Assembly (NCBI GenBank): GCA_041441465.1
Contig: JASDSY010000034.1
Span: 1 to 46,847 of the forward strand
From: Candidatus Wallbacteria bacterium
Lineage (GTDB): Bacteria; Muiribacteriota; UBA9980
Direction of reading: 5' to 3'
DNA length: 46,847 bases
Below the pieces are notes generated by a model. It saw nothing but the letters and a program-made list of their open reading frames with translations. It ran no database searches and was not told the DNA's origin. The position numbers were made by a program, and so were the translations under genes. Positions 3,418 through 40,617 of the stretch are shown piece after piece (positions within the stretch are counted from its first letter, which is position 1; each line of letters opens with the position of its first letter).

Positions 3418-3491
<74 letters not shown>

Positions 3492-3549: not shown

Positions 3550-6054
3550 TTAGTATATTGATGAAATTTTTTGTGCTTTATAATTTACTATATCGAATTT
3601 ATTACCGTTTGGAATGATTATTATCCCGCCGCTTTCTTTAGATACTAATAAAAGTTTCGAGTATTTTCCTAAAATTTCGGCGCTTTTTTTGTGAGGATGT
3701 CCGAATTTATTGTTTTCTGCGGCGTAAACAAACGACAATTCAGGCCTGAGTTTTTTAATAAATTCTTCGCTGCTTGAAGTTTTGGAGCCGTGATGAGCTA
3801 CTTTTAAAATTTTAACGCCTGCGTCTGGGATTTTGGTTATTAACTCATTTTCAACATTTTGGGAAATATCGCCGCCAAAAAAAGCCGTTAAATTTTTGTA
3901 ACTCATTAAAAATGCTATTGAACAGTCGTTTTCGTTCTGCCTGAAATTGATTTTATGATTTGGAATGCCGGGCCATAAAAATTTAAAATTTATATTATCG
4001 ATATCTAGTTCATTACCTGCTTTAACATAAACTTGATTTTGATCGGTACCATCGAGCCTCAGTAATAGCCTTTTATATTCGGTTTCATTTGAATACGAAT
4101 CGGAATAAATCCAATTTTTTATGATTAAGCCGCTTTCAAGAAGTTTTAAGGCGGCGCAATAATGATCATAATGGCCGTGAGTTATGATCAAATATTCGAT
4201 TTTATTGACTCTGATCTTTTGAAATAGCGGAAGCAGTATTTTTTCGTATACATTCTCGTTGCTGCCTCCGGCGTCGATCAGGATATACCGTCCCTTTTCG
4301 GTTCTGATCAATGTGCAGTCGCCCTGACCGGTATCTATAAAATACATTTCAAAACCGCGCTGATATTGTAATATAAATGATTTTACGGTGATCAGCAATA
4401 TGATTATAATCGAAGTTTTTAATAGAAAATTAAAATTGATGTAATTATCTAAAAGTATTTTTAAATTGTCAAAAAACAATCCGGAAAATATTAAAATGGC
4501 CGCATAAAGCAAAAATACTTCAATAAATGAAAGATCATAAGGCGCCAGATTGTATTGCATTATTAAAGATAAAAAAGAATTTATTTTAAGAGCGACAAAT
4601 GAAATAAAAAACAGCGCCGGCGTTATTAATAGGCATAACGGAGCGATTGTGATATGGAAAAAAATGAATAGTATAGCTAAAATTAGCACCAATTCATATA
4701 GCCATAATGTTAAAACATTTGAAATAAATGCGCATGACGGTAAAAAGCCTGTGAAGTAAGCTATCGCAGGATATGTTCCGGCCGTTGTTATTACGCAGGC
4801 GTTAATGTTTTCAAAAATGGTTTTTATAAGCTCATGATTGCAAATTTTTGTCTTATCCAAAAAATAAAAAATATTTATACTTTTAGAGGCCAGCAGCATA
4901 ATTGTAGCTATGTATGAAAGCCAGAATCCAAAATTAAATATGAAATTCGGCCATATTAAAACTTGTATAAAAAATGCTGCGGCCAGAATTTGAAATTCAT
5001 ATTTTTCACGTCCGGCAAGCGAAGCTAATTGACACAGCATAAACGCTATATACGCTCTCACAACTGCGGCCTGAATGCCTACAATTGCTATATAAGATGT
5101 CGTTATCGTTCCTATTATTAGAAAACTAAATTTAAAGTCTAATTTTAATTTTTTCAACAATGAATTAATAAGTGAAATTAAAAGTGTGAGATGGCTTCCG
5201 CTGACTACCAGAACATGTATGAGTCCGGTTTTTTTAAAATCTGTCAGAATGTTTTTTTCAAGTTCGCTCGAGTCGCCGAGAATGAACGCTTTTAAAAATC
5301 CGGCAATTTCCGGCCTGAAATTATTTGTGAATCCTGTTTTGATTTTTTCGGCGAAAAATTCATTTAAACTTAGAAATTTTTTTCTTGAAATAATTTTTAA
5401 ATTGGTATTATGTGTTTTTACTCGAAAATTTGGTTTTGAAATTAATGGATTAATTCCGTAATATATTACCGGATTTTTATATTCGTGAGTTTTTTCAACT
5501 ATTCCTTTTAAATTAATCTTATCGCCATTTATTAATAATGTCCTATTTACGCCTTTTTCAACTGAAATATAAACAGGAATATCGCCCGTTATGTTAAAAT
5601 TTTTGTTTTTATGATTTTTAACGCTTTCTATTTCTAAAATAAAAAAGATGCTGTTATTTTCATTTTTAATATTTTTAATAAATCCTGTCAATTCAATAAT
5701 GGTGCCGTTAGTTATGAAATAGTTTAATAAGGTTGCGTGTTCTGCCGCTAAATTGAGGCCGCGGTAATTCCCGGACAAAAAAATGCAGATTAATGAAATG
5801 AAGACGATGTGTTTTTCGGTTAATGAAGTATTTGAGTAAAGCCTTATTATCAGTATAAATATAATTGAAAATAAGAAAATATAAATGAATTTTATTTTTA
5901 ACAAAACGGCGCCGTTGAAATAACTTATTAACCCGGCGCCGCTTAATACACCGAAGACATAGAATATTATTATTATTAAAAGTTTAAAATTTATTTTGTT
6001 AAGCATAGCGGCTGCAGTATTGTTCCTAACGGCCTTTTTTATTTTGGCCTGCAT
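3550..6054 (-). CDS. comEC: DNA internalisation competence protein ComEC/Rec2
   Basis: 834 aa polytopic membrane protein. C-terminal metallo-beta-lactamase domain (DTGQGDCTLI...ITHGHYDHY...VAHHGSKTSS). Confidence 0.9.
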   Translation of the reverse strand: MQAKIKKAVRNNTAAAMLNKINFKLLIIIIFYVFGVLSGAGLISYFNGAVLLKIKFIYIFLFSIIFILIIRLYSNTSLTEKHIVFISLICIFLSGNYRGLNLAAEHATLLNYFITNGTIIELTGFIKNIKNENNSIFFILEIESVKNHKNKNFNITGDIPVYISVEKGVNRTLLINGDKINLKGIVEKTHEYKNPVIYYGINPLISKPNFRVKTHNTNLKIISRKKFLSLNEFFAEKIKTGFTNNFRPEIAGFLKAFILGDSSELEKNILTDFKKTGLIHVLVVSGSHLTLLISLINSLLKKLKLDFKFSFLIIGTITTSYIAIVGIQAAVVRAYIAFMLCQLASLAGREKYEFQILAAAFFIQVLIWPNFIFNFGFWLSYIATIMLLASKSINIFYFLDKTKICNHELIKTIFENINACVITTAGTYPAIAYFTGFLPSCAFISNVLTLWLYELVLILAILFIFFHITIAPLCLLITPALFFISFVALKINSFLSLIMQYNLAPYDLSFIEVFLLYAAILIFSGLFFDNLKILLDNYINFNFLLKTSIIIILLITVKSFILQYQRGFEMYFIDTGQGDCTLIRTEKGRYILIDAGGSNENVYEKILLPLFQKIRVNKIEYLIITHGHYDHYCAALKLLESGLIIKNWIYSDSYSNETEYKRLLLRLDGTDQNQVYVKAGNELDIDNINFKFLWPGIPNHKINFRQNENDCSIAFLMSYKNLTAFFGGDISQNVENELITKIPDAGVKILKVAHHGSKTSSSEEFIKKLRPELSFVYAAENNKFGHPHKKSAEILGKYSKLLLVSKESGGIIIIPNGNKFDIVNYKAQKISSIY

Positions 6055-6263
6055 TTAATAGATGATATGTCGTAGTTGACTTTTCATGTTTATAATTCGG
6101 CGGACTCGAGACCATTTTAAACAGGTTATTCGCTTAACTCGTATAGAAACGAATACATTTAAACAGCCAGATTTTAAAATATTTATTATAAATTTATTAA
6201 TATTTTTTTTTAATAATAACTTTCAATAATCAAAAAAATGCTGCGATATTTTTGGCGGAAGTA

Positions 6264-7337
6264 TTAGTTACTCAAAAAACCGGCTTTTACCTTTTGCTCT
6301 ATTTGCCTGAATATTTGTTCATTCTGCTTGAGAAAACATTTTATATTTTCTCGGCCCTGGCCGATTCTTTCTTTGTCGAAGCTATACCACGCGCCGTTTT
6401 TTTCGATTACGCCCTGGGCCAGCGCGAGTTCTATCATGTCGGCTTCGGCTGAAAACCCTTCATTGAACATAAGATCCAACTCGGCTGATTTGAAAGGCAT
6501 TGCGCATTTATTTTTTGTGACTTTGACCCGGACTTTTATGCCGGCCGGCGTTTCTGCGTTTTTTATTACCTCGATTTTTCTTACTTCAAGCCTTATGGAT
6601 GAAAAAAATTTTAATGCGCGTCCGCCCGGCGTAGTTTCTGAATTTCCGAACATTACTCCGATTTTATCTCTGAGCTGATTTATGAATATTACAGTGCAGT
6701 TATTATTAGCTGCCAGGGAGGTTATGCGCCTCAATCCGGAAGCCATTAATCTCGCTTGAAGCCCTATTTGCATTTCATTCATTGTGGCCTCGATTTCAGC
6801 TCTGGGAACTAGCGCAGCGACCGAATCGATTACGATTAATTTAATTATTCCGCTTTTTATAAGGGCGGAACAGATTTCAAAGCTTTCTTCGCCGCTTCCG
6901 GGCTGTGATATTAAAAGGTTTTGAGTCTGGATGCCGATTTTCTTGGCTAATTTTATATCGAGCGCATGTTCTGCGTCGATAAATGCCGCCACGCCGCCGT
7001 TCATCTGATAATTTGCGATAATGTTAAGCGTTAAAGTCGTTTTGCCGGAAGATTCAGGGCCGTATATTTCTATTATCCTGCCGCACGGTATTCCGCCGAT
7101 TCCTAATGCCGCGTCTAACGATAATAATCCGGTGGAAATCGCATCGATATTTTCGGATGCCGCGTTATCGCAATCGTCGCTGAATATTGTGCCAGCACCG
7201 AATTTCTTTATCATTTGCTGCTTTAAGCCGTTCAGGCTTTCTGAGTTTAAAGCTTTAGGCGAATCCTCGAAAGCTGTCGGCCGTTCTGTAATGTTATTTT
7301 TTTCGTTTTTCCTGGTTTTCACTTTTTCGTTTTCCAT
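6264..7337 (-). CDS. recA: Recombinase RecA
   Basis: GRIIEIYGPESSGKTTLTL Walker A. Aligns along its full length with RecA. About 40-aa low-complexity N-terminal extension. GGGGAGG ribosome-binding site. Confidence 0.95.
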   Translation of the reverse strand: MENEKVKTRKNEKNNITERPTAFEDSPKALNSESLNGLKQQMIKKFGAGTIFSDDCDNAASENIDAISTGLLSLDAALGIGGIPCGRIIEIYGPESSGKTTLTLNIIANYQMNGGVAAFIDAEHALDIKLAKKIGIQTQNLLISQPGSGEESFEICSALIKSGIIKLIVIDSVAALVPRAEIEATMNEMQIGLQARLMASGLRRITSLAANNNCTVIFINQLRDKIGVMFGNSETTPGGRALKFFSSIRLEVRKIEVIKNAETPAGIKVRVKVTKNKCAMPFKSAELDLMFNEGFSAEADMIELALAQGVIEKNGAWYSFDKERIGQGRENIKCFLKQNEQIFRQIEQKVKAGFLSN

Positions 7338-7444
7338 TTAAAACCTCCCCTAAATTTAGATTTTATAGTTTTGAGAATTGCTATATAAAAAAATCAATAA
7401 TAAGTGAAATGGTTTCCTTTAATTGCTTTTTTATGATATCCATT

Positions 7445-8047
7445 TTAATAAGCGATAAAATATTTTTTTAATGTCTGGATTCTTTTGGTGCCAATTCCGC
7501 CAATGGATGTGAGTTCGTCGATTTTCTGGATTCTATTTCCGTTTTTTTGCCTGTATTCGATTATCTTAATACCAATCTTTTCGCCGAGGCCTTTGATTTT
7601 TTTAAACTGATTGATGTCAGCCAAATTTATGTCGATGCGCGGATTTTCAGATTCACCGGAATTGTTTAATTCGTCAGGATTTGAAAGATCAGGCGTTAAA
7701 TCGCCAGAAACATAAATTTTATCCTTGATTTTTTCATACATTCTTGGACCTATTCCGCTGATTTTCCTTAATTCGCATTTTGTCCGGAATTCGCCGGCTT
7801 CTTCACGGTATTTTATTATTCTTTCGGCCAGGCCGCTCCCGATTCCCGGGATTAATGACATTTCTTCGGCTGTAGCATCGTTCAGGCTCAATGGAAATTC
7901 AATTACGGCGATATTTTTTGAGTTGTATGGACCGTCGCCCGCCCATACCTTATTTTCAAAAAATACGTTTGCGAATATTCCGAATAATAAGACTCCGATT
8001 AAAAATAATGACATTAAACGGTTGTTTTTACTTTTTGTTTCTTTCAT
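7445..8047 (-). CDS. comEA: Competence protein ComEA (helix-hairpin-helix DNA receptor)
   Basis: N-terminal transmembrane anchor. Two HhH repeats (LNDATAEEMSLIPGIGSGLAERII ; LNNS..INLADINQFKKIKGLGEKIGIKIIEYR). GGAGG ribosome-binding site. Confidence 0.85.
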   Translation of the reverse strand: MKETKSKNNRLMSLFLIGVLLFGIFANVFFENKVWAGDGPYNSKNIAVIEFPLSLNDATAEEMSLIPGIGSGLAERIIKYREEAGEFRTKCELRKISGIGPRMYEKIKDKIYVSGDLTPDLSNPDELNNSGESENPRIDINLADINQFKKIKGLGEKIGIKIIEYRQKNGNRIQKIDELTSIGGIGTKRIQTLKKYFIAY

Positions 8048-8085
8048 GATATTGTTCCTCCGTTAAGTTTATTATTGTAATGACA

Positions 8086-8103
8086 AAAAGCGTGCCATTT
8101 AAA
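8086..8103 (-). promoter_or_regulatory. Candidate sigma-54 promoter upstream of comEA (perfect -24 element, imperfect -12)
   Basis: Minus strand reads TGGCACGCTTTTTGTCA, against consensus TGGCACG-N4-TTGCW. The only deviation is TTGT instead of TTGC. Sits about 40-55 nt upstream of the comEA ATG. Confidence 0.3.
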
Positions 8104-8488
8104 AACCATTGAAAAAAGGTTTAATTATAAAACCGGCAGTATCGATTTGAGACTTGATCTTGTAATTTTTTTAAAAAAAATCAGGCGCTGAATAAAAAAA
8201 CCTTATAACGCCTTATTTTTTTAATCATAAACTAACTAAAAAAATGCAGTTAAAAAATCTCAAATTGACACTTGCGATATCAAAATGAGACCATGGTTTT
8301 ATGTTTTAACTATGGAATTATAATAATTAAGGAATTAAGGTAATTTTGATTGTTATAATAAATTCCCGATTTTATTATATTTTGAAAGGAAATATTATAT
8401 ATATTTTTTTCTTTTGAGAAGTTTTTAAAAAAAAATATATATAATCACGGTTTTAAGCATAATATCGATATATTGTACTTAATTTTAC

Positions 8489-8517
8489 TTGACAATTTCT
8501 TTTTTTAAATATATAAT
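8489..8517 (+). promoter_or_regulatory. Sigma-70 promoter for the 8562-10599 operon
   Basis: TTGACA-17 nt-TATAAT. A second copy of the -10/CAC motif (AAATATATATAATCAC) lies about 74 bp upstream at 8433-8448. Confidence 0.65.
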
Positions 8518-8561: not shown

Positions 8562-9386
8562 ATGGTTTTAAATAAACGTGCATTTGCGTTTTTGATATCT
8601 GTGTTTTTGTTAAGCGGGTCAAGTATGGTTTTAGCTCAGCAAACTGCTCCCGTTGAAGTGAAAACGACTGCAGAAGCTGCTGTTGTTCCTGCAACTTCAG
8701 AAATTTCAGCTGATAAGCCTGCCGCTTCGACGTCAGAAACAAAGGTATCGGCTGATAAGAGCGTTAATCAGCCGGCTGCTACAGAAAAGACAGCAGAAGT
8801 TACAGTGCCGCCTGTTCAGACGTCTTCTGAAAATACAACCGGCGAAGTGAAAGATAACGCAGTAAAACCGATCGAACCGGCAAAAACTGCAGAAACTGCT
8901 GTTTCCGGCAGCGGGTTAAGCGCTAAAGACTTTGTATTGAAGCAGGAAGAACTTGCTTACGGCGTCAGTCTCGTTCAAAAAGGAATAAAAAAGATTCCGT
9001 TCAAGGATAATCCCGCGGTTTACGATACTACGGAAAAAGATAAACTTCAAGAAATCGCCAAGAGGCTTTTCCCGGATGATAATTTAAAAAACCTTGGAAG
9101 CAGTTTGAATTCGATTGCTATAACCTTATTGACTTCGAAAAAAGATGATAAAGACCTTGATTATGGACTTGTTTCGCTGGAATTGTCAGAAACAGCTAAA
9201 AAAGATTTTGATACCATCAAGACAAATATAAAAAACTCGATGCTGGTATATTTTAAAGGTGAAAATTTCTTTATTCACGATAAATTTCCGATTATAGTGA
9301 TCCTGGCTCCGAATTTACCTGACAATAAAAAAGAAGATATTCAATGGGCCAGCGAACTTATTCAGAAAAAACTTTCTTCAAAGTAA
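8562..9386 (+). CDS. Secreted hypothetical protein (signal peptide, Ala/Thr/Glu-rich N-terminal region)
   Basis: 274 aa. N-terminal signal MVLNKRAFAFLISVFLLSGSSMVLAQQ. GGAGG ribosome-binding site. No recognisable catalytic motif. Confidence 0.6.
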   Translation: MVLNKRAFAFLISVFLLSGSSMVLAQQTAPVEVKTTAEAAVVPATSEISADKPAASTSETKVSADKSVNQPAATEKTAEVTVPPVQTSSENTTGEVKDNAVKPIEPAKTAETAVSGSGLSAKDFVLKQEELAYGVSLVQKGIKKIPFKDNPAVYDTTEKDKLQEIAKRLFPDDNLKNLGSSLNSIAITLLTSKKDDKDLDYGLVSLELSETAKKDFDTIKTNIKNSMLVYFKGENFFIHDKFPIIVILAPNLPDNKKEDIQWASELIQKKLSSK

Positions 9387-9387
9387 G

Positions 9388-10599
9388 GTGCGAATTTCAA
9401 AAAAAATGATATCAAATAATAGTGAAACAATAAACAATAAAAATTCAAAAATTAAATTATGGCAAAATGGCGCGGCTGTAAAAATAACGAACGGCGAATT
9501 AGCTGGAAATGTGGCTAAAAATGGCGTTGTCGCAACCATCGGCGGCGCCGGAATGACGCCGGAGCAATTAAAACGCGAAATGCAGATTGCCCGTGAAATT
9601 TCTCCGGACGGTGAAATTGGCGTTAATCTTATGTACGTCGCCAAGGAATTTCATGACGCCGCTATTGCCGCTCAAGAAGCCGGCGCTAACTTTATTGTCC
9701 TTGCCGCGGGTTATGATTCGAATGTTTTGAACTCAACCGGCGATTACGAAGACATAAAGATAGAACTTATACCTAAAGTTGCGCACCCGACGCTTGCGTT
9801 GCGTGTATTTCAAACCGGTATAGTCAAAAGAATAATTCTCGAAGGTTCGGGCTGCGGCGGTCACATAGGGTACAGCTCGATTAAAAACTTTATACCTGTT
9901 GAAAAACTTGTAAAATTAACGGCCGATAGATTCAAAAGCCATATTGCGGCACATGCGCTGGGAAAAAATGTTCCTCAATCAGAGCTTGATGCTTTCTTAA
10001 AAGAGCTTTCAGATAACAGGGAAGAGTATCGTAAAAAATATCATGTCCCTGAATTGATAGCTGCCGGCGGTATCAATGAATCGAATTTTCAACAGGTAAT
10101 CGATAACGGCGCAAGCTACCTTGGAAGCTGCTTGATTTATACTATTTCAAAAGAATCTAACGCGCACGATAATTGGAAAAAAATGCAGTTTGAAACTAAA
10201 AATCGCATTTTTTTCGAAAGCCCTGTAAAAGGTATGATAGGCTCCGCTATTAAAAATAAATTTATCGAAAAATATTTTGAGCTCGATGACGAAGGCATTT
10301 ATCGATTTAAGGCTACTGCCAAGCAAAATGCCGTGCACGGCACCAATATAAAATCCGATTTTATTGATCGTTGCAATGTCGAATGTATGGCGAATAATTT
10401 TTGCCTTAAGTATTCCAAAGAATACCGTCACCCTATGTGTATTTATTTCAGGCTGGAAGAGGCGGCTGTCGTCGGAAATGTCGATGACGGTATAGTCTTT
10501 ACTTCTGAAAACTTCAGTTATATTCAAAAAGTTGCGCGTCCTAATATCAGCGTTAAAGAAATCGTCGATATAATCAAAAAATACACCTATGGCGCTTAA
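9388..10599 (+). CDS. NMO/FabK-family FMN oxidoreductase (nitronate monooxygenase / enoyl-reductase-like) with Cys-containing C-terminal extension
   Basis: Motifs ..ILEGSGCGGHIG.. (like EAGGH) and ..LIAAGGI.. are characteristic of the 2-nitropropane dioxygenase/FabK TIM-barrel family. An extra about 130-aa C-terminal region (CNVECMANNFC...HPMC). Starts 2 nt after the upstream stop; the ATG at 9406 is an alternative start. Confidence 0.65.
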   Translation: MRISKKMISNNSETINNKNSKIKLWQNGAAVKITNGELAGNVAKNGVVATIGGAGMTPEQLKREMQIAREISPDGEIGVNLMYVAKEFHDAAIAAQEAGANFIVLAAGYDSNVLNSTGDYEDIKIELIPKVAHPTLALRVFQTGIVKRIILEGSGCGGHIGYSSIKNFIPVEKLVKLTADRFKSHIAAHALGKNVPQSELDAFLKELSDNREEYRKKYHVPELIAAGGINESNFQQVIDNGASYLGSCLIYTISKESNAHDNWKKMQFETKNRIFFESPVKGMIGSAIKNKFIEKYFELDDEGIYRFKATAKQNAVHGTNIKSDFIDRCNVECMANNFCLKYSKEYRHPMCIYFRLEEAAVVGNVDDGIVFTSENFSYIQKVARPNISVKEIVDIIKKYTYGA

Positions 10600-12628: not shown

Positions 12629-13543
12629 TTAAAGAGTGACTTTATTTATTTTTAGTTTATCGATTGCCATGGTGCCTATGCCAAGATCCTGGGCAAATTT
12701 CAGGTAATTGATTCCGGCCGGGTCGAATTCAAGGATTTTAGCAGCCGCGGTGTCGGCTGCGACCATGTCGGTTGCGATTATTTGCATTCTTTTAGAGGCT
12801 ATATCGGCTTTTGATATGCCGCGCGGGCCGTTTTTAAACATTACATTAAAAGCGTCAATTACAGTTAAATCCGGTTTTCTGATTAAAGGGAAATCAGCGA
12901 TGCACTGGTGCAATCCTTTGTTATGGTAAAAGTCCCTGTTCCATACCACGCCCATAAGATTTTTTAAAGAAGACGTCATTTGTGAACTGCCGTGGTGTTT
13001 TAAGACAGGGACGTTTATTATGACGTCTGAATCAAGGTAAAGCTCATGGATCATAGCATTTTTTAAAATTTTAGAATTGTTTATTTCTTTTTTACGATAG
13101 CTTTCTTTTTTGTTTCCGGAAACTATGGTGCCGCCGGCGCCGATTACGGCTTTTTCTATGCCGCTTAAATTGTAGCAATCCTTCCAGTTATTGCATGTGT
13201 TGTCAAAAACATATACTTTTTTTGCGCCTTCTTTTAGCGCTAATTCGACTATTTTGGCGACAAGATCGGGCTGCGTGTTAGCGCCTTCCGCCGGCGTGCG
13301 CGCCCAGCCGATGTTCGGCTTTACAAGGACAATCTGGCCTTTTTTTACGAATCTTGACATGCCGCCGATTTCTGCGATGCCTTTTTCAAACATTTGTGCC
13401 GGCGTACCGTTTCGCAGTGCGACCATGTCAGGTTCGGAAGCTTTTTTTTCGTCAGCGAAAAGTAAATTTGAAAAGCCGCCCATGGCAAGAGTCAAGCCGG
13501 CTCCGACTCCAAGTTTTATAAAATTACGCCTGGTTATATTCAT
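12629..13543 (-). CDS. Tat-exported DUF362-family protein
   Basis: N-terminal twin-arginine signal MNITRRNFIKLGVGAGLTLAMGG. The core (..GQIVLVKPNIGWA..) resembles DUF362 proteins, which are often found with Fe-S proteins. Confidence 0.6.
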   Translation of the reverse strand: MNITRRNFIKLGVGAGLTLAMGGFSNLLFADEKKASEPDMVALRNGTPAQMFEKGIAEIGGMSRFVKKGQIVLVKPNIGWARTPAEGANTQPDLVAKIVELALKEGAKKVYVFDNTCNNWKDCYNLSGIEKAVIGAGGTIVSGNKKESYRKKEINNSKILKNAMIHELYLDSDVIINVPVLKHHGSSQMTSSLKNLMGVVWNRDFYHNKGLHQCIADFPLIRKPDLTVIDAFNVMFKNGPRGISKADIASKRMQIIATDMVAADTAAAKILEFDPAGINYLKFAQDLGIGTMAIDKLKINKVTL

Positions 13544-13587
13544 AATTTAAACCTCCGCTATTTTTATTTTTTGTGTTACATTATACA

Positions 13588-13628
13588 AAAAAACACGGAG
13601 AATGACAATGATTCTCCGTGTTTTTTAT
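13588..13628. terminator. Rho-independent terminator after mazG
   Basis: CACGGAGAAT-(7 nt)-ATTCTCCGTG followed by TTTTTT. Confidence 0.7.
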
Positions 13629-13662
13629 TTTATTATTTTAAATATTATTTTGAAAATATGAA

Positions 13663-14151
13663 TCAGTTGTTGTCTATGATAACTTTTTTTGGTTTTTCAT
13701 AGCGCCCGCGGCATTTTTCTTTGGGGTATTTTTTGACGTTTTTAACGACTTTCTCGGTAATAGCTTGAGATAAGTCGATACCAAGGACGTTAGCAAGCGA
13801 CATGCAATAAAGCATAATGTCCGAAAGTTCGTCGCATATATCGGTATAGTTGGGTGAATCTTTTTTTATTTTTCTTACCTGTTCATTAGTCAGCCATTGG
13901 AAAAGTTCCATTAATTCAGCGGCTTCAATCGCTATTGACATGGAAAGGTTTTTGGGATCGTGGTATTGCTGCCAATCGCGTTCCGCTACAAAACTTTTCA
14001 TTATTTTTTTAAGGTCGTCGATGGTTGTTTTGGAATCTTTATATTTTTTTTCTGCAAGTAATCCATCGAGGCTTGTTTCATTTTGTCCGGCTGCTGATTT
14101 GTTTGATTTTTCGCCGGATTTGTCTTTGAGTGAATTTTTTTTATTTATCAT
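13663..14151 (-). CDS. MazG-like nucleotide pyrophosphohydrolase
   Basis: ..SIAIEAAELMELFQW.. (EExxE-type MazG motif). Lys/Ser-rich N-terminal extension. Start overlaps the dedA stop by 1 nt. Confidence 0.7.
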   Translation of the reverse strand: MINKKNSLKDKSGEKSNKSAAGQNETSLDGLLAEKKYKDSKTTIDDLKKIMKSFVAERDWQQYHDPKNLSMSIAIEAAELMELFQWLTNEQVRKIKKDSPNYTDICDELSDIMLYCMSLANVLGIDLSQAITEKVVKNVKKYPKEKCRGRYEKPKKVIIDNN

Positions 14152-14807
14152 TATTGACCAGGCTCCGTATTATTATTTTTTTTTTCAAAATGCGCTTTTA
14201 CATATTCAAACACTATAGGTAAGAGCGATATGAATATGACTATTGGCACTACGACGTTTAAAGGGAAGCGGGTGCCTATGAAATATCCGATAAGGCACAT
14301 ACTGCAAACCCAGCCAATGCCGCCTATTACGTTATATATAAGAAATTTCGTATAATGCATTTCGGCGACGCCGGCGATAACCGGGGCAAAGGTTCTTATG
14401 AGCGGCACAAAACGGGCCAGTATAATAGTTTTGCCGCCGTATTTTTCATAAAATTTCTTTGTTTTAATTAAATGACTTTTTTTAAATAGCAGCGAGTCTT
14501 CGCGTGTAAATAATTTCGGACCGGCTTTATAGCCGATTGAATAACCTACTGAATCGCCTATAATAGCAGCCGCGCAAAGAAGTAAAATTAAATGATTGAT
14601 ATCTAAAATCCCTTTCGAGGCCAGAACTCCGGCAGTAACTAAAAGCGAGTCGCCCGGCAGAAAAAAACCTATCAACAGGCCGGTTTCGCTGAAAACAATG
14701 GCGGTTAAGACCGTCAGGCCGCCCCAGCGTATTAATTCGTCAAGATTATAAAGGTGATCGAAAAAAAATTTAATGACATCAAACATTAGCATTACCTCTT
14801 TTAGCAT
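14151..14807 (-). CDS. DedA-family (SNARE-associated) inner-membrane protein
   Basis: ..VLTAIVFSETGLLIGFFLPGDSLLVTAGVLA.. is the DedA signature. Multi-transmembrane protein. Confidence 0.85.
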   Translation of the reverse strand: MLKEVMLMFDVIKFFFDHLYNLDELIRWGGLTVLTAIVFSETGLLIGFFLPGDSLLVTAGVLASKGILDINHLILLLCAAAIIGDSVGYSIGYKAGPKLFTREDSLLFKKSHLIKTKKFYEKYGGKTIILARFVPLIRTFAPVIAGVAEMHYTKFLIYNVIGGIGWVCSMCLIGYFIGTRFPLNVVVPIVIFISLLPIVFEYVKAHFEKKNNNTEPGQ

Positions 14808-17501: not shown

Positions 17502-19349
17502 TTAAAGCAAATCGTATTTTTTCATCCGGCGCCATAGCGCCATACGGCTTATTTTCAGCTTCTCGGCGGCTATAGTTTTATTGTAATCGCACTCTTCTAA
17601 AACCTGCAAAATTTTATCACGTTTCCATAAGTCTGATTTTTTCGTAATTGTCTTAAAATTGCCGTTCATATTTTCGTTCGCGGTATTTGCAAATTCAGGC
17701 TTAATTAAAATCGCCGGCTGCTTTACTACACTGTTAAGGATTTCTTCGAATCTTTGTTTATATTCGCTCGAGAAATTTTCAAATGAAATGATGTCGTTTT
17801 TGCAAAAAATGAATGCATGTTCAATCATATTCTGGAGTTCCCTGACGTTGCCCGGGAAACTGTAAATTGCGAAGAATTTTTTTACATCCGGCGCCACATC
17901 GGCGATGGCTTTGGAATGTCTTTCGTTCAGTTTCTTTATAAAGCTTTTGGTCAATAATTCGATATCATCCCGTCTTTCTCTTAAGGGCGGGATTTTTATG
18001 TTTATGACTTTTAAACGATAATACAGATCTTCCCGGAATTTTCCTGCGCGTATGATCTCTTCAAAATTCTTATTTGATGCCGCTATTATTCTTACTTCGG
18101 CTTTTTGCGATTTTACGTCACCGAGCGGTTCATATAATTTTTCCTCAATTACCCTGAGAAGCTTTACCTGTAGATGGATTGGCATTTCGCTTATTTCATC
18201 TAAAAATATCGTGCCGCCCGCAGCAATTGAAAACCTTCCAGGTTTATCTTTTTTTGCGTCGGTAAATGCGCCCTTTACATAGCCGAATAATTCCGATTCG
18301 AGTAGAGTTTCGGGAATTGCGCCGCAGTTTACGACTATGAACGGCCCTTTGGCGCGGTTTGAAAGACTGTGGATTGTTTTGGCGATCAGGCTCTTGCCGG
18401 TGCCTGATGCGCCTTCTATTAATACGTTACAATCGCTTTCCGCGGTTATTGGAAGCAGTTCGAATATTTCAAGCATGGCTTTGCTTTTGCCTTTAATATC
18501 ATTAAATGAATATTTTTCGACAAGTTCTTTTTCAGTCTGTTCTATTTGTTTTTTTAGAAGTTCGTTTTCCGTTATGTCGTTGACTAACATGAATGTTCCG
18601 GTTAATTTGCCTTTTTCATTGCGAAATCCGGCGATTGAAATATATGTATAAATCGGGCGTCCTTCTTTATGTTTAAAATTAAGGTTAAATTTTATGGCCG
18701 TTACCGATAAATTATCTATATTTTTTATATGGACCATACATATATTGGCATTCCCCTCGTCCATAAATTCGAACGGGGTTTTGCCTATTAATTCATGCTG
18801 CTGGTACCCTAAAATTTCGCTTATTCGGGCGTTAACGAAAGTAGTTTTGAAATTATTGTCAATTACCCAGAATCCTTCATTAGCCGTTTCGACAAATTGT
18901 TTGTATTGGCTTTCATTTTTTATGAGTTCTTCGAAGTTTCGGGCCGACTCGAAAATAGCCGTTGCCGGCGAGTAGGCGATTATAAAACCGGTGAGATGGT
19001 TATCTAGTTCGAAAATTGGAGTTATTTTGAAGTGTACGTTTTCGGCGATGTTTTCATTATTTAAAAAATTAAGGTATCCTTCATAGCAGTGCGTTTCTTC
19101 GGAGGCTTCAAGTTTTTGCGTGAATTCATACTGGTTTTCAGGTTGTATCATTAATTTCAAAAAATTTTTGCCGGTCAGATAATTTGAATCGGCTTTAAAT
19201 AATTTCTGCGCTTCAGAATTGGCGTAAACTATGAATGCGGAAATATCTATTACTAAAATAGCATAGCCTATTTTTTCAAGAATGGCTTGATAAAATTGCT
19301 TCGTATATTTTTCGGTATTTACTATTGATACTTTGTTAATATAATCCAT
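17502..19349 (-). CDS. Sigma-54-dependent transcriptional activator (PAS sensor, AAA+ sigma-54 interaction domain, Fis-type HTH)
   Basis: Walker A EGASGTGKS. ESELFGYVKGAFTDA (the GAFTGA motif reads GAFTDA here). C-terminal HTH ..TIAAEKLKISRMALWRRMKKY. N-terminal PAS-like region of about 270 aa. Confidence 0.85.
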   Translation of the reverse strand: MDYINKVSIVNTEKYTKQFYQAILEKIGYAILVIDISAFIVYANSEAQKLFKADSNYLTGKNFLKLMIQPENQYEFTQKLEASEETHCYEGYLNFLNNENIAENVHFKITPIFELDNHLTGFIIAYSPATAIFESARNFEELIKNESQYKQFVETANEGFWVIDNNFKTTFVNARISEILGYQQHELIGKTPFEFMDEGNANICMVHIKNIDNLSVTAIKFNLNFKHKEGRPIYTYISIAGFRNEKGKLTGTFMLVNDITENELLKKQIEQTEKELVEKYSFNDIKGKSKAMLEIFELLPITAESDCNVLIEGASGTGKSLIAKTIHSLSNRAKGPFIVVNCGAIPETLLESELFGYVKGAFTDAKKDKPGRFSIAAGGTIFLDEISEMPIHLQVKLLRVIEEKLYEPLGDVKSQKAEVRIIAASNKNFEEIIRAGKFREDLYYRLKVINIKIPPLRERRDDIELLTKSFIKKLNERHSKAIADVAPDVKKFFAIYSFPGNVRELQNMIEHAFIFCKNDIISFENFSSEYKQRFEEILNSVVKQPAILIKPEFANTANENMNGNFKTITKKSDLWKRDKILQVLEECDYNKTIAAEKLKISRMALWRRMKKYDLL

Positions 19350-23585: not shown

Positions 23586-26498
23586 TTATTTTTGAGTGTT
23601 TTTATCGCTTGTTTTTGTTGAAGTTGTGGTTGTACCGCTCTGGCCTGAAACATATGCTTCGTATTCATTGAATGCCTGTTTGTATTCTTGTAAAGCCTGC
23701 TGGCCTTCTGCGGATTCACCCTTGCCTTCAGCAAGTAACTGCGCGTATTTCTGATATGCCGCTTTCATCTTTTCCTGAAGTTGTTTTACGTTATCCGTAC
23801 CCGATGAATTTTTATCAGCTACTACATCGGTATTGCCGGTAACGGTGGTATTATTTTTATCGGTTGTCTGTTCGACGTCGCCGGTTGAAGCCTGCGGTGT
23901 TACGTTGATAGTTGCGCCTGTGCCTGTAACTCTGATGCTTGTCTGTTCATTTGTCGATTTTTTACCGCGGATTAACTCTACGACTTTACCGCCTATGAAG
24001 TTACCTACGATACCGCCTATCATCGAACCTATGCCAGGTAATAACATCGAACCTAATGTAGCGCCTATCGTCGAACCGATTGCGCGTCCGGCAAGGTCGG
24101 CTTTGTCTATTGCGGCCCATGCTTTCTTGAATGAAGGTTTGTTGCCTGCCGCGATATCGTTACCCATCTGACCGCCTATAGCGCCGCCTGCCATCGAGAA
24201 TACTGTCGGCATTAATGCGCCTATTACAGGACCTACTACCGGGATTGTCGATGCGAATGTGCCTACGAACGCACCGGCTGCCGAACCAAGGCCGGAACCT
24301 ACAAATGAGCCTACATATTCGCCTGAAGCGAGGTACGATACTGCTTTTCCTATGTTAACCGGTTCGCCTTTTACAACCTGGTCTACTATCTTGAAGCCTA
24401 CTGTTAAGCCAGCTGAAAGTGCGACATTTTTTACTGAGAATGATTCTTTTAAAGCTGTGCCTGCTGCTTTACCGGCTGCCGTTGTGGTTTCTTTACCCCA
24501 TTTATAGCCTTTTTCATAAGCCTCTGAATGTTTGCCGCCTGGTTTTGGTTTCGCGTTCTGATCGCCGTTTGCTGAAGCGGTCGTGCCGTCATCGGCGCCA
24601 GCGGCAGGTGCTGATGTACCATCATCTGTCGATGCTGATGCCGGCTTAGGATTTGTGCCGTCAGCGTCAGCCTGTGAGTTAGGTTTCGGGTTTGTACCGT
24701 CATCCGAACTAGCAGCCGGAGTTGATGTACCGTCATCTGTCGATGCTGATGTCGGCTTAGGATTTGTGCCGTCAGCGTCGCCTGTACCTGTTGCAGCAGA
24801 AGGCTGACCGCCGTTTTCTGCCGTTGCAGGCGCCTGATTTGATGATGTAGGTTTGTTATTGCTTGCAGTTGAACTTGAAGCCGGTGTACCGTCAACATCG
24901 CCGGTTGAACTAGGTTTCGGGCTGTTATTGCCGGCTGCCGGTGTACCGTCTAAATCGCCTGAAGCGGTTGTGCCGCCGTTGCCTGAAGCGCTGCCGGAAT
25001 TATTCGAAGGTGTTGAAGCAGGAACGCCGTCATCTGTCGAAACAGGCGTTGAATTATTTGAAGGTGTCGAGTTAGATGCTGTATTTGAGCCAGCCGGAGT
25101 TGATGATGAAGCCGGCGTTGAGCTTGTCGAACCTGTTGTTGATGCAGCTGCCGGTGTTTCAGGAGCGGTGCCGCCTACACCAGTTGCTGATGAAGCGCTT
25201 CCGGAATTAGCTGCCGGTGTGCTTGATGATGCTGTGTTTGAGCCGGTTGAAGCCGCAGGAGTTGATGACGAAGCAGCCGGTGTGCTGCCTGCAGTCTGCG
25301 GTGCCGGTGAAGTTGCGGCATTGCCTGCGCCTGTTGCAGGGCTTGGGCCGTTATTGTTTATTATCGTGATCTGACGTCTGTCGATGATTGTTACTTTATT
25401 GTTCGAATCGCGTATTACAGTTGTTTTATTATTTGAGCGCGCTGTGTTTGTGGTATTGGTCGTATTTGTGGTGTTGCCTGAATTTGTATTTGTAACAGTG
25501 TTTGTGTTTGATGTATTTCCTGCATTTTCGATTCTTGATGACGATGATGTATTTCCTGAGCGGGAAATATTACTTGAAGTTGATGATGTTGTTGACGAAT
25601 CGGTAGCGATACGTGTCGAATTACCTGAATTAGCAACTTTGCTTGAGTTCGAACTTGAAGTTGAAAGAGTATTGCCCGAATCGGTAATTCTTGATGTCGC
25701 TGAGTTCGAAGTTGATGTTGTAACATTTTTTGTTGAAATTGCGACATCAGTGTCCGCGATGCGTGTCGATGTCGAGGTAGTTGTATTCGTCTTCGATGAA
25801 GTTGTGCTTGTTACAGGTTTATTGACGACCGATGTGTTGTTGGTATTGCTGTTGCTTGTATTTGAAGCCGATACTGTCGTTGTCTGTTTAGGAGCCGGTA
25901 ATGCTAAAGTTTCCTTAGGGGCTGGCAATGCCAGTGTTTCTTTAGGAGCCGGCAGGGCTAACTGCTGCTTAGGAGCTGGAAGCGCCAATGTTTCTTTAGG
26001 AGCCGGTAATGCTAACTGTTGTTTTGCGGCTGTTGTCGAAGCAGAAGATGAGCTTGCCGAAGCGGTGCTTGGCGTTGCAGTCGAGGTGGCGGCAGCCGGA
26101 GTCGATGAAGTAGCAGCAGAAGTTGCCGAAGTTGAAGCGGTTGAAGAACCGTCGGCGAATTTCCAGGTTTTAAACAAACCGTTTGAATCGCGGACTACTG
26201 TTCTGGCGCGCCCATCGCTCCAGGTTTCCGTTGTAACTTTTCCCCAAGATACAAAATGTCCGTTAGCGTCGCGCACAACCCAGCGCTGTACGCCGTCAGC
26301 CCATGTTTCCATCGAACCTGTACCGAATGTAGTGTTTTGCCCTTTAGGCGTGCTGACATTCCATACTTCTTTTGCGGCGGTAGCGGTAACGCTTGCTGAA
26401 GCCTGAGCTATAGCCGGCGCAAATATCGATGTGAAAAAGCTGAATATTAAATATACTATAAATATCTTTTTTAACATCGAGCGTTTCATAATAATCAC
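23586..26498 (-). CDS. Large secreted Ser/Thr/Ala/Asn-rich repetitive protein with C-terminal glycine-zipper membrane-interacting domain
   Basis: 970 aa. Signal peptide. Duplicated N-terminal module (ETWADGVQRWVVRDANGHFVSW / ETWSDGRARTVVRDSNGLFKTW). Five copies of LALPAPK(E/Q)(T/Q) from 27-nt DNA repeats. Two copies of a 37-aa DADGTNPKP unit. About 700 aa of low complexity. C-terminal GxxxG-rich block and coiled coil. AAGGATAGGTGA ribosome-binding site. Confidence 0.8.
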   Translation of the reverse strand: MIIMKRSMLKKIFIVYLIFSFFTSIFAPAIAQASASVTATAAKEVWNVSTPKGQNTTFGTGSMETWADGVQRWVVRDANGHFVSWGKVTTETWSDGRARTVVRDSNGLFKTWKFADGSSTASTSATSAATSSTPAAATSTATPSTASASSSSASTTAAKQQLALPAPKETLALPAPKQQLALPAPKETLALPAPKETLALPAPKQTTTVSASNTSNSNTNNTSVVNKPVTSTTSSKTNTTTSTSTRIADTDVAISTKNVTTSTSNSATSRITDSGNTLSTSSSNSSKVANSGNSTRIATDSSTTSSTSSNISRSGNTSSSSRIENAGNTSNTNTVTNTNSGNTTNTTNTTNTARSNNKTTVIRDSNNKVTIIDRRQITIINNNGPSPATGAGNAATSPAPQTAGSTPAASSSTPAASTGSNTASSSTPAANSGSASSATGVGGTAPETPAAASTTGSTSSTPASSSTPAGSNTASNSTPSNNSTPVSTDDGVPASTPSNNSGSASGNGGTTASGDLDGTPAAGNNSPKPSSTGDVDGTPASSSTASNNKPTSSNQAPATAENGGQPSAATGTGDADGTNPKPTSASTDDGTSTPAASSDDGTNPKPNSQADADGTNPKPASASTDDGTSAPAAGADDGTTASANGDQNAKPKPGGKHSEAYEKGYKWGKETTTAAGKAAGTALKESFSVKNVALSAGLTVGFKIVDQVVKGEPVNIGKAVSYLASGEYVGSFVGSGLGSAAGAFVGTFASTIPVVGPVIGALMPTVFSMAGGAIGGQMGNDIAAGNKPSFKKAWAAIDKADLAGRAIGSTIGATLGSMLLPGIGSMIGGIVGNFIGGKVVELIRGKKSTNEQTSIRVTGTGATINVTPQASTGDVEQTTDKNNTTVTGNTDVVADKNSSGTDNVKQLQEKMKAAYQKYAQLLAEGKGESAEGQQALQEYKQAFNEYEAYVSGQSGTTTTSTKTSDKNTQK

Positions 26499-33930: not shown

Positions 33931-35136
33931 TTAATATTGTATGTATGCAAGAGGGTTTAAAGGGTTGCCGTTCTTGCGGACTTCAAAATGGAGATGATAA
34001 CCGGTTGATGTTCCTGTGTCGCCGACATAGCCCACGATTTTTGAAGAAGTAACTTCCTGGCCTACCTTAACATTTATTTTAGACATATGCGCATACCTTG
34101 TGGTGTAGCCTTTTGGATGCTTAATTTCGACCAGTTTGCCATAACCGCCCAGCCAGCCGGCGAAAGTTACCTTTCCGCCCATTGCGGCTGTTATCGGCCT
34201 GCCTTTGCCTGCGCCGATATCAATGCCGGTGTGCATTTTAGATTCGCCCCATACCGGATGCAGCCTCATACCGAATTTTGATGTCACCACCCCTCTTACC
34301 GGCCATTTAAAAACCCGGCGTTTCTTTTTTGCGCTTTTTATAATATCCGAAAGCGGGTCGCGTGATTCGGTCGATACGTTTTCAAGCTGCGGACTGTTGT
34401 TTTTACCTTTTAATGATCTTGTTTTTACATTTTTTAAGATGTTTGCAATTTCATCGTCAAGTTTTTGAGATTTCTTTTTTGCAGTTTTAATTTCAACTTC
34501 CGATTGTTCATCAAGTGTTGAATTTTTTTCGCTGCTGGAAATTATTTTTGCTTTTTGTTCTTCTAAAATTTTCTTGAATGTTTCCGGACTTGTTGCTGCG
34601 GCAGTTGTTTGTTGGGCGGCTTCGGCCGTTACCATTATCTTCTGGCCTATGTAAATTCTATAATCGCTTCCAAAATTATTGATTTTTTTCAGTTCGTCAA
34701 TCGGCATAGAATAAATTTTAGCGACGTCTGAAAGTTTCTGTCCGTAAGTGAGAGTGTGAAATATTATTTTTTTGCCGTAAGGAACCTCGGCGGCAGGAGC
34801 TTTTGAGGCTTCCGCCTGCGGTTTGTATTCTTCGATGAAATTTTCCTGCGAAATCCTTACAGTCATTTTTTCGGGAGTATTGTCAGGTTCTGATTTTGTC
34901 TTGCCTGAATATGCCACACGTGAAAGTGTGTTTAAAAACTTGTCGGCGCCATGTACAGGTTTTTCTTCGGCATTTACATTGCCCGTTATGATATTGGCGT
35001 TATCGAACGAAGCTTTTACAGCAAGATTATTGTCGCCGTGAGTGTACTTTATGAATAATATGGCGACCGACTGGAAAAATATGGATATGAATAGTACCAT
35101 TAACAGGTACATGAATAATTTTTTCAGTGTCTGCAA
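33931..35136 (-). CDS. LysM-domain M23-family metallopeptidase
   Basis: LysM region (HTLTYGQKLSDVAKIYSMPIDELKKINN). M23 motifs HTGIDIGAGKG ... GYHLHFEV. N-terminal membrane anchor. Confidence 0.85.
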   Translation of the reverse strand: MQTLKKLFMYLLMVLFISIFFQSVAILFIKYTHGDNNLAVKASFDNANIITGNVNAEEKPVHGADKFLNTLSRVAYSGKTKSEPDNTPEKMTVRISQENFIEEYKPQAEASKAPAAEVPYGKKIIFHTLTYGQKLSDVAKIYSMPIDELKKINNFGSDYRIYIGQKIMVTAEAAQQTTAAATSPETFKKILEEQKAKIISSSEKNSTLDEQSEVEIKTAKKKSQKLDDEIANILKNVKTRSLKGKNNSPQLENVSTESRDPLSDIIKSAKKKRRVFKWPVRGVVTSKFGMRLHPVWGESKMHTGIDIGAGKGRPITAAMGGKVTFAGWLGGYGKLVEIKHPKGYTTRYAHMSKINVKVGQEVTSSKIVGYVGDTGTSTGYHLHFEVRKNGNPLNPLAYIQY

Positions 35137-35623: not shown

Positions 35624-36511
35624 TTATTTTTTCTTTAGAGCCTCTACTCCACCGTTTATATCGAGAAGTTCGCTTGTGATCGATTCCTGACGTGCCCTGT
35701 TCAAAACTAATGTCAGGGAACCTATCATTTCCTGGGCTTTATCGGTAGCCGAACTCATTGTTATCATGCGCGAACCCTGTTCGGAGCATGATGATTCAAC
35801 AATTGCGCTGAATATGTGCATTTTTACGAAACGAGGAAGCAAATACTCGATTATGCTGTTTGGAGTCGGCTCGAATTTAAAGTCTTTAGCCATGGCTGCG
35901 CTGTTATCTTCGTTAGCCGGTTCGTCAAATTTAAAAGGAAGGACTTTTTCAGTTTTGGTAGCATATGAAATCGAAGACAGGAATTTGGTATTTATTATAT
36001 AAACCTCCGCTGCGTCACCGCTTTCGAACACATCCATAATGGCGGTAACCACTTCTGAAACATCCTCGAATTTAGGGTCCGGTTTTTGAAGAGGAGTGCT
36101 GAAATGAATGTTATAACCGCGCTTATTAAAATAGTCGTAGCCTTTGGTGCCGATCGTTATCAGTATCGATTCGAAACCTTCTTTATGCGCTTTTAAAACC
36201 TGTGCTTCGACTTCTTTGCATACATTCATGTTAAAGGAGCCGCAAAGTCCTTTATCGCCTGTGATTACGACGAAACATCTTGTGCTCGCGGCGTTTTCGA
36301 TACCTTTAATATAATTGTGGCCTATGCTTTTTAAATATGATTCGAGATCGTTAATCGTCTGCTTGATTCTGGCGTAATACGCTTTTATGCCTGAAAAACG
36401 GTTCTGCGCTTTTTTGAACTTCGCGGCTGATACCATTTTCATTGCGCGGGTTATGTGCTGGATAGAAGTTATGGATTTTATTTTACGCCGTATTTCTTTT
36501 GCCTGTTTCAT
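35624..36511 (-). CDS. atpG: F1 ATP synthase gamma subunit
   Basis: MKQAKEIRRKIKSITSIQHITRAMKMVSAAKFKKAQ is the canonical gamma N-terminus. Confidence 0.9.
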   Translation of the reverse strand: MKQAKEIRRKIKSITSIQHITRAMKMVSAAKFKKAQNRFSGIKAYYARIKQTINDLESYLKSIGHNYIKGIENAASTRCFVVITGDKGLCGSFNMNVCKEVEAQVLKAHKEGFESILITIGTKGYDYFNKRGYNIHFSTPLQKPDPKFEDVSEVVTAIMDVFESGDAAEVYIINTKFLSSISYATKTEKVLPFKFDEPANEDNSAAMAKDFKFEPTPNSIIEYLLPRFVKMHIFSAIVESSCSEQGSRMITMSSATDKAQEMIGSLTLVLNRARQESITSELLDINGGVEALKKK

Positions 36512-36581
36512 TTACACGCCCCGATTAAAATTACCTTTGGCTCATTATTATAATTATGACCATAAAGGATTAAATTTTTTA

Positions 36582-38096
36582 TTATTGCTTTTCATTAAAA
36601 ATATCGGTAAATTCCTTGCAAGCTTTTTTCAAGACTTCAGAGGTTTGATCGTCCAGAGTCTTGTTTTTCTTTATGTTCATAAGAACCTGCGGATATTTAT
36701 CCTCGATGAATTTAAGGAACTTTTCCTCGAATTCCTTGACTTTATCGTTAGGAAGACTGTCCATCAATCCCCAGGTGCCGACTGCAATTATTGCTATCTG
36801 ATACTCGACTTCCATCGATTTATATTGCGGCTGTTTAAGTATTTCCGTGAGTTTCTGACCGCGGTTCAACTGGTCTCGTGTCGCTTTATCAAGATCTGAC
36901 GCGAATTGCGCGAATGACTGAAGTTCGCGGAATTGCGCCATGTCCATTCTAAGGCGTCCTGCGATTTGTTTCATGGCCTTGATTTGTGCGTTGCCGCCGA
37001 CACGCGAAACGGAAATACCGACGTTAATGGCCGGCCTTATACCTGAATAAAAAAGGTCCGATTCGAGATATATCTGACCGTCGGTGATTGAAATAACGTT
37101 TGTCGGAATGTAAGCGGAAACGTCGCCGGCCTGAGTTTCGATTATAGGAAGTGCGGTAAGCGAACCGCCGCCTTTTTTATCACTGAATTTGCAAGCTCTT
37201 TCGAGAAGTCTTGAGTGAAGATAAAATATATCGCCAGGATATGCTTCGCGGCCCGGCGGTCTTCTCAAGAGTAACGATATTTCCCTGTATGCGACTGAGT
37301 GTTTGGAAAGGTCATCGTAGACAATGAGCGCATGTTCGCCTTTATTTCTGAAATATTCGCCGATCGCGCAGCCGGAATAAGGCGCGAGAAACTGCTGAGA
37401 AGCCGGATCTGAAGCGGTAGCTGAAACTACCGTCGTATATTCCATTGCGCCGTGTTTTTCAAGGGTAAATACGACCTGTGCTACAGTTGAGCGTTTTTGG
37501 CCGATAGCGACGTATATGCAGTGGACGTTTTTACCTTTCTGGTTGATTATAGCGTCGATAGCGATAGCCGTTTTTCCCGTGGCGCGGTCGCCTATTATAA
37601 GTTCGCGCTGGCCGCGGCCGATTGGAATCATTGCGTCGATAGCTTTTATGCCGGTCTGTAAAGGTTCTTTAACCGGCTGCCTTTCTATAACGCCGGGAGC
37701 TTTGGTTTCTACCGGCATAAATTCGCTTGTAGTTATAGGGCCTTTGCCGTCGATCGGCTTGCCGAGGGCGTCAACTACTCGTCCGGTAAGAGCGGGACCG
37801 ACTGGAACAGAAACGATTTTACCGGTACATCTTGCCGTATCGCCTTCTTTAATGAGTTTGTCGTCGCCGAGCAAAATGCAGCCTACTGAACTTTCTTCAA
37901 GGTTAAGGGCCATTCCGAAAACCTCGTTCGGAAATTCGATAAGTTCGCCGGCCATTGCATTCTCAAGGCCGTAAACGCGCGCGATCGAGTCGCCGACGCT
38001 TACAACGGTACCAACCTGGTCTAAATGCAGATTGGTGTCAAATTTATTTATTTCTTTGGTTAAAATACCAACTATTTCATCAGGCCTGATAGGCAT
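36582..38096 (-). CDS. atpA: F1 ATP synthase alpha subunit
   Basis: 504 aa. Walker [12 protein letters not shown]. Aligns with alpha subunits along its full length. Confidence 0.95.
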
Positions 38097-38177
38097 TTAT
38101 TAATCCCCCATTCAAGTTATTATGAGTTGATCGGTGCATGCTTTCGAGTTTAAACTTTAAGATAAAAGCAGGCGCGG

Positions 38178-39214: not shown

Positions 39215-39297
39215 CGTTTACTCCCCTTTGAATCAGGTACTTTAAAATATTTCTAACCTCGCGGTCAATCCTGGCGTAAAATTTAAAAATATTTAAA

Positions 39298-39531: not shown

Positions 39532-39672
39532 TGAACTTCCCCTTTCCTATTTTTGTTTTGGTTTGATATTTCTTGTTTGTTTTTGAAATTATATATTTTT
39601 GTTGTATTGATTTATTTTTATACTGAAACAAATATAATTATAACATAAAATCCGGCATTTATTGATATAAAA

Positions 39673-40596: not shown

Positions 40597-40617
40597 ATTT
40601 TATTTTGTTGATTTCTA

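Follow-up and report, generated by a model that had tools for sequence, protein, structure and literature searches.

A stretch of 46,847 nt from a Candidatus Wallbacteria genome (contig JASDSY010000034.1, positions 1 to 46,847, referred to here as the window) carries on its minus strand the adjacent genes comEA, recA and comEC, whose products are predicted to bind DNA, recombine it and pass it through the membrane. The same gene order recurs throughout the clade to which this genome belongs, and upstream of comEA two sequence features are conserved in each locus of the clade: an element of the sigma-54 -24/-12 type and, further upstream, a 13-bp palindrome. We propose, with moderate confidence and from comparison of sequences, that comEA-recA-comEC constitutes a single clade-wide operon driven by a sigma-54 promoter and by a bacterial enhancer-binding protein (bEBP) acting at the palindromes.

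The three genes were identified from their open reading frames (ORFs) and from profile matches: comEA at 7445-8047 (minus strand, 200 amino acids [aa]), recA at 6264-7337 (minus, 357 aa) and comEC at 3550-6054 (minus, 834 aa). An earlier note on this DNA had described them as lying head-to-tail on the minus strand with gaps of 107 nt (7338-7444) and 209 nt (6055-6263), and both the ORFs and the gaps are exactly as it had them. ComEA begins with a single N-terminal hydrophobic segment (membrane anchor), followed by two tandem HHH_3 domains (PF12836, 112 bits). It passes the model of the ComEA helix-hairpin-helix (HhH) region, TIGR00426 (89 bits, cutoff 53), and falls short on TIGR01259, the model of the full-length comE subfamily (105 bits vs a cutoff of 152), which fits its atypical double-HhH architecture; the two tandem HHH_3 domains after a membrane anchor are a trait of ComEA throughout the clade. 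A ribosome-binding site, GGAGGA, lies immediately 5' of the gene. RecA is full-length and passes the equivalog model TIGR02012 (444 bits, cutoff 325.3), with matches to PF00154 (365 bits) and RecA_C (74 bits); the Walker A motif GPESSGKT is intact at residue 93 and the invariant core residues are kept. The canonical first helix is preceded by an N-terminal extension of about 30 aa (within residues 1-38) rich in Lys, Glu and Asn. This extension is clade-wide and measures 30-60 aa (window, L001-L008, L091, L094, L104), with a conserved start (M-x-x-E-K/R-x-K/R) and a variable low-complexity linker. ComEC contains the DUF4131 (OB-like), Competence and Lactamase_B domains, each above its Pfam gathering threshold, together with the metallo-beta-lactamase motif HGHYDH at residue 626 and about 11 hydrophobic segments; its score on TIGR00361 (188.8 bits) is marginally under the cutoff of 190.05. 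By these domains ComEA is predicted to be a membrane-anchored DNA receptor, and ComEC a DNA channel with a metallo-beta-lactamase nuclease domain.

Relatives of the window were collected through RecA, the clade being delimited by a gap in RecA scores; the Wallbacteria name itself is carried by the window RecA only. In a database of 5.8 billion proteins about 12 RecA clusters group with the window RecA at 458-496 bits and 61-68% identity, and beyond them the scores fall to 411 bits or less (Marinimicrobia, Omnitrophota and others), so that on this measure the clade appears as a small, discrete and deep lineage. In published phylogenomic analyses the Wallbacteria are a candidate phylum that falls within the diderm Terrabacteria, close to Riflebacteria. 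When one genome per GTDB species was scanned, seven clade loci (UBP16_UBA6123 and ADurb.Bin243 among them) and one Myxococcales locus came up; all seven have the order comEA-recA-comEC and the Myxococcales locus does not have the arrangement. Further contigs with clade RecA or ComEA added L091, L094, L100, L101, L102 and L103/L104, each again with the arrangement. In total, comEA stands next to recA in 14 of 14 clade loci, and comEC comes next in all 13 whose contigs extend that far. These 14 loci represent about ten sublineages, among which RecA is 73-78% identical in four between-sublineage comparisons. The clade relatives are just 32-35% identical to the window in ComEC and 41-45% in ComEA; the closest relative, L103/L104, has a ComEA 68% identical to that of the window. 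The genes flanking the trio vary among the sublineages (chemoreceptors, a methyltransferase, an ankyrin protein, beta-lactamase-fold proteins and a STAS protein in the relatives), and none of them is competence-related.

As a control, 80 arbitrary metagenome recA loci (48-57% identity) were collected with universal RecA motifs, about 60 of them with at least 1 kb of flanking sequence on each side. Profiles of the clade ComEC and ComEA matched at none of the 80, a negative that is meaningful because the ComEC profile detects outgroup ComECs at 235-292 bits. In the outgroup locus L095 the arrangement is also missing: its RecA (P0040), which like the window RecA aligns over the N-terminal region with 95% of the query covered, is encoded in the classical context rimO-pgsA-cinA-recA-recX. 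Conversely, neither recA nor comEA lies beside comEC in the three nearest non-clade comEC loci. The search for ComEA homologues gave just two close clusters, and the homologue P0243 was set aside as a multi-HhH protein in an unrelated gene context. On one background metagenome contig (L081) two RecA ORFs, both full-length, are separated by about 6 kb (7001-7957 on the plus strand, 13434-14540 on the minus strand). Being present in all clade loci and missing from the controls, the trio is a clade-specific conserved unit, neither a chance neighbourhood nor a general one; from this survey the arrangement may be called clade-wide, and it is probably phylum-wide. The earlier note had named a synteny common across the phylum as something that would refute its reading. 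The gene order that it noticed is real and is not peculiar to one genome, and we read its spread in the opposite sense, since conservation across the whole clade argues for selection on the linkage.

The genes are closely packed in most of the clade. Of the 13 loci with comEC, 12 have a recA-comEC separation of -14 to +26 nt, the 209 nt of the window being the exception; comEA and recA are 10-225 nt apart in the relatives (10-39 nt in L102, L100, L091 and L006), and in some loci all three genes follow one another at 4-26 nt. The window is thus the least compact member of the clade. Its comEA-recA spacer (7338-7444, minus strand, 107 nt) is AT-rich and contains at 7344-7350 the separate recA ribosome-binding site GGGGAGG that had been reported for it; it contains no terminator and nothing in common with the relatives' spacers, and no motif of any kind is common to the comEA-recA spacers of the clade loci. 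The recA-comEC spacer (6055-6263, minus strand, 209 nt), also AT-rich, occurs only in the window and in L009, a locus of the same species with an identical RecA. It includes the sigma-70-like hexamers TTAAAA-17-TATAAT at 6213-6185, so that a secondary comEC promoter is possible. That the spacer is a mobile element was ruled out, since it is not repeated in the rest of the window or in the other loci, contains no ORF and shows no convincing structure. Intrinsic terminators were not detected in the spacers of the window and nine relatives, bar one weak hairpin in L001, by a scan that is insensitive in this lineage, as it detected nothing after comEC either. Rfam at gathering thresholds returned four tRNAs alone for the whole window, and no RNA element in the spacers.

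Regulatory signals had earlier been sought in the gap upstream of recA; the conserved ones are found upstream of comEA instead. In an alignment of the comEA upstream regions, two conserved features stand within otherwise unalignable DNA, namely a -24/-12 element and a palindrome. The consensus of sigma-54 promoters is TGGCACG-N4-TTGC(W). In the window the element TGGCACGCTTTTTGTC (8082-8097, minus strand) ends 35 nt before the comEA ATG and follows the pattern GGCAYR-N4-TTGY, of which it is the single match in the whole 46.8 kb. All 14 clade loci have the pattern on the coding strand, 29-112 nt upstream of the comEA ATG, with the GG and the TTG invariant and the spacing exact, against a background of 9 matches in 689 kb. 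A relaxed scan of the window for other sigma-54 promoters gave none that was convincing; the match ctggctgtttaaatgt in the 209-nt spacer is weak and fails the pattern. Several loci (L001 at 7090-7130, L002, L003, L006, L091, L094, L101) have a GC-rich hairpin followed by a T-run, placed between the palindromes and the sigma-54 element or just upstream of them; it is a possible terminator, shielding the operon from transcription that arrives from upstream.

The palindrome, T(C/A)TCA-N3-TGA(G/T)A with the core form TCTCA-N3-TGAGA, is found in one to three copies upstream of the -24/-12 element in all 14 loci. The window has a proximal copy, TCTCAAATCGATA (8140-8152), centred 50 nt upstream of the -24 GG, and two distal copies, TGTCAATTTGAGA (8258-8270) and TCTCATTTTGATA (8278-8290), centred about 168 and about 188 nt upstream of the GG, the latter a candidate upstream activator site; no strand is assigned to these sites. 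At up to one mismatch, these three copies between 8140 and 8290 are the only ones in the 46.8 kb scanned, and 18 sites were counted in the 689 kb of background. In every clade locus the centre of the proximal copy lies 48-50 or 58-62 nt upstream of the GG; these two distance classes are one helical turn apart, and the same face of the helix is therefore kept. One or two distal copies lie further upstream. The sequence around the palindromes is not conserved. In the closest relative, L103/L104, the distal copies at -181 and -199 repeat the layout of the window within surroundings that are poorly alignable, and between the two, the intergenic DNA nearest to comEA shows poor conservation save at the promoter element and the palindromes. 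Their position and conservation suggest that the palindromes are activator-binding sites; TCTCA-N3-TGAGA matches no activator site known to us.

The motif patterns were defined on the first ten loci, and L100, L101, L102 and L103/L104 were fetched afterwards. Each of these four has exactly one promoter match, 32-36 nt before the ATG, accompanied by palindromes at -48, -49 or -62 and by distal copies. Among 28,000 shuffled upstream regions, 15 had a promoter match in the last 150 nt and none had a promoter match together with a palindrome.

The window also encodes a protein of the class required, a sigma-54 activator with the domains PAS, PAS, AAA+ and HTH_8 (17502-19349, minus strand; sigma-54 interaction domain PF00158, 224 bits); its gene has the same orientation as comEA and is located 9.5 kb upstream of it. 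The organism accordingly uses sigma-54 activators. In L001 the distance from comEA to a related activator fragment upstream is 6.3 kb, and a second -24/-12 match adjoins the activator gene there. No copies of the palindrome were found near the activator gene of the window or of L001, and a linked activator gene as a conserved partner of the trio was rejected, given these distances of 9.5 and 6.3 kb and its absence from the other loci. As to damage control of recA, five known LexA-box variants were sought at up to one mismatch in the comEA upstream regions and comEA-recA spacers of ten loci, and none was found beyond one chance-level match, although the lineage's own box may differ. The remark that no LexA/SOS box precedes recA in the window accordingly stands, and extends to nine relatives: the two box types named in it and three further variants are all absent.

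From these observations the following mechanism is proposed. A bEBP answering some signal would bind the 13-bp palindromes upstream of the promoter and, at the -24/-12 element that precedes comEA by about 35 nt, would remodel the RNA polymerase carrying sigma-54, and a single transcript would then run through comEA, recA and comEC. The DNA receptor, the channel with its nuclease, and the recombinase, which coats single-stranded DNA as it comes in, would appear together, because one signal-gated activator governing the trio would switch on all three products at once. The result would be a competence-type regulon working through sigma-54 in place of ComK, ComX or Sxy, with natural transformation as its likely purpose and with a recA free of LexA control. 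Secondary sigma-70 promoters, for instance for basal expression of recA, may in addition lie in the AT-rich spacers (107 and 209 nt) of the window. The suggestion that recA inside the uptake module points to co-expression has thus gained strong comparative support from the conserved trio, the changing flanks, the near-fusion of genes and the missing terminators; co-transcription as such is still deduced from this layout. An extended version would hold that throughout the phylum the only recA sits in a sigma-54/bEBP uptake operon, that LexA/SOS control has been replaced by a signal-gated switch, and that the Lys-rich tail of RecA is adapted to loading on DNA emerging from ComEC; we regard this extension as rather unlikely in its entirety.

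Several points weigh against the operon proposal. The -12 element reads TTGT in 11 of the 14 loci, with the canonical TTGC in only three (L102, L091 and L100, which include the two most GC-rich upstream regions). Ten of the 14 loci served to set the patterns and some are close relatives, so that the loci are not fully independent. The activator genes of the window and of L001 are 6-10 kb distant and are not conserved neighbours of the trio. The gaps of 107 and 209 nt in the window leave room for independent promoters, and sigma-70-like hexamers do occur in the gaps, yet no more commonly than in shuffled sequence (31 vs 24.5 expected). Finally, sigma-54 promoters are normally silent without their activator, which is awkward if this recA is the only one in the cell; a sole recA driven by sigma-54 implies an undetected internal promoter or a second recA. 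An internal promoter, either inside the comEA gene or in spacers as long as those of the window, a second recA, or a tolerated inducible recA would each offer a way round this difficulty.

Three other explanations were weighed against these data. The neighbours might be conserved and still be transcribed independently from their own sigma-70 promoters, with the sigma-54 element serving comEA only, or nothing, and the linkage reflecting history or gene dosage. Such a reading would accommodate the sigma-70-like hexamers in the window spacers (7389-7360 and 6213-6185), the comEA-recA spacers of 95-225 nt in several relatives and the established requirement for basal recA expression in repair. It is hard to reconcile with a recA-comEC gap of -14 to +26 nt in all but one of the loci with comEC, and with comEA-recA distances in L102, L100, L091 and L006 that leave no room for an intergenic promoter; moreover, no terminators were seen, the promoter-like matches are no commoner than in shuffles, and the comEA-recA spacers lack a common motif. 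We consider independent transcription improbable. About equally improbable, in our estimate, is that the recA of the trio is a transformation-dedicated paralogue, the housekeeping recA, possibly under LexA control, lying elsewhere and the operon being a specialised add-on. Some bacteria, e.g. Myxococcus, do have two recA genes, the L081 contig shows two RecA ORFs in one background locus, the clade RecA has an unusual N-terminal extension, and a sigma-54 promoter alone is ill-suited to a housekeeping gene; the gene product is nevertheless a canonical RecA that scores in full (444 bits vs a cutoff of 325) with its invariant core intact, and the search of 5.8 billion proteins found no second Wallbacteria-labelled RecA, although such a search cannot exclude one.

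The remaining explanation concerns the upstream signals only, and would make the palindromes operators of a classical repressor or activator on a sigma-70 promoter, GGCAYR-N4-TTGY being no sigma-54 promoter at all. The prevalence of TTGT at -12, the lack of an assigned cognate activator and the many sigma-70-like hexamers in upstream regions that are mostly AT-rich could be accounted for in this way. The agreement of all 14 loci with the sigma-54 consensus in the GG, the TTG and the exact spacing speaks against it, and TTGC is present in L102, L091 and L100, including the two most GC-rich regions. In addition, the palindromes lie at least 48-62 nt upstream and are helically phased, a position that fits activator sites and does not fit an operator in overlap with a promoter, and L091, a GC-richer relative, has no coding-strand sigma-70-like site upstream of comEA. 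We therefore hold a sigma-70 operator to be very unlikely, and retain the operon under sigma-54 and a bEBP as the preferred reading.

The remaining features of the window are those of an ordinary chromosome, with histidine-utilisation genes, part of an ATP synthase operon, cysS and the sigma-54 activator. As the earlier note had indicated, the trio is followed by a tRNA gene, tRNA-Ala(GGC) at 3418-3491 (minus strand), which adjoins comEC downstream and has a promoter-like site, TTGACA-17-TATTTT with TG, at 3542-3514. No relative has a tRNA directly after comEC, and by this comparison the tRNA is a neighbour and not a component of the unit. Beyond the palindromes, a perfect sigma-70 consensus (TTGACA-17-TATAAT, 12/12; 8489-8517, plus strand) faces a divergent gene pair at 8562-9386 (274 aa, no family) and 9388-10599 (NMO-like); the intergenic stretch with this promoter is highly conserved in L103. 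At 23586-26498 (minus strand) a 970-aa ORF with no Pfam match has a local GC content of 49% vs about 36%. Its product has a signal-like N-terminus, long low-complexity regions rich in Ser, Thr, Ala and Asn, five LALPAPK(E/Q)(T/Q) repeats and a hydrophobic C-terminal region rich in Gly, and is probably secreted or located at the cell surface. The ATP synthase a, delta, alpha and gamma genes (35624-41103, minus strand) are directly followed by a LysM/M23 peptidase gene (33931-35136), and the atp operon appears to be split because the beta and epsilon genes are missing at that position.

Full-text searches of the literature found no report of recA between comEA and comEC and none of a sigma-54 promoter or sigma-54 control for comEA, comEC or recA, and the literature on Wallbacteria consists of passing mentions. 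To our knowledge, DNA uptake and RecA have been found coupled only through co-regulation in trans, and this in a few model transformable bacteria. In the clade described here the coupling would be built into the structure of the operon, and would have persisted through a divergence so deep that ComEC is only about one third identical between members. The arrangement provides strong genomic evidence that ComEA and ComEC in this phylum would act in recombination and would not simply take up DNA as food. It also points to sigma-54 with a bEBP as a route to competence for which we found no description in the literature, and suggests a lineage whose recA is without recognisable SOS control. The conserved palindrome offers a handle for defining the rest of the regulon, the activator and the signal in whole Wallbacteria genomes. 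The parts are familiar; their regulatory and evolutionary combination is new, in an uncultured phylum, and is clear and testable.

Among known systems the closest in gene content is the comE operon of Bacillus subtilis, comEA-comEB-comEC, which is inducible, as the clade operon would be, and ComK-dependent, and in which comEB encodes a dCMP deaminase. Both are co-directional and combine a membrane-anchored HhH receptor, ComEA, with a three-domain channel, ComEC. They differ in that recA here takes the place of comEB in all 13 loci reaching comEC, that ComEA here has two HHH_3 domains, and that a sigma-54-type promoter with palindromes is found here in place of a ComK-dependent sigma-A promoter. 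Competence-induced recA is represented by cinA-recA-dinF-lytA of Streptococcus pneumoniae, under ComX, and by recA of B. subtilis, which is stimulated by ComK. In those bacteria, as proposed here, RecA is raised together with the uptake machinery and independently of DNA damage; theirs, however, is raised in trans from a gene next to cinA, as in L095, whereas here recA lies within the uptake operon, without a cinA or recX neighbour and under what would be a different sigma factor. With LexA/SOS-controlled recA genes the clade shares the same recombinase, and none of the five known LexA-box types was seen in its ten loci scanned. The upstream region most resembles the class of sigma-54 promoters under bEBP control, such as PilR-dependent type IV pilin genes of Pseudomonas and NtrC- or NifA-type promoters, with which it shares the -24 GG, the -12 G(C/T), the fixed spacing, inverted-repeat sites tens to hundreds of bp upstream and a conserved helical face; judged by what is known of that class, the geometry is that of a bEBP-activated promoter.

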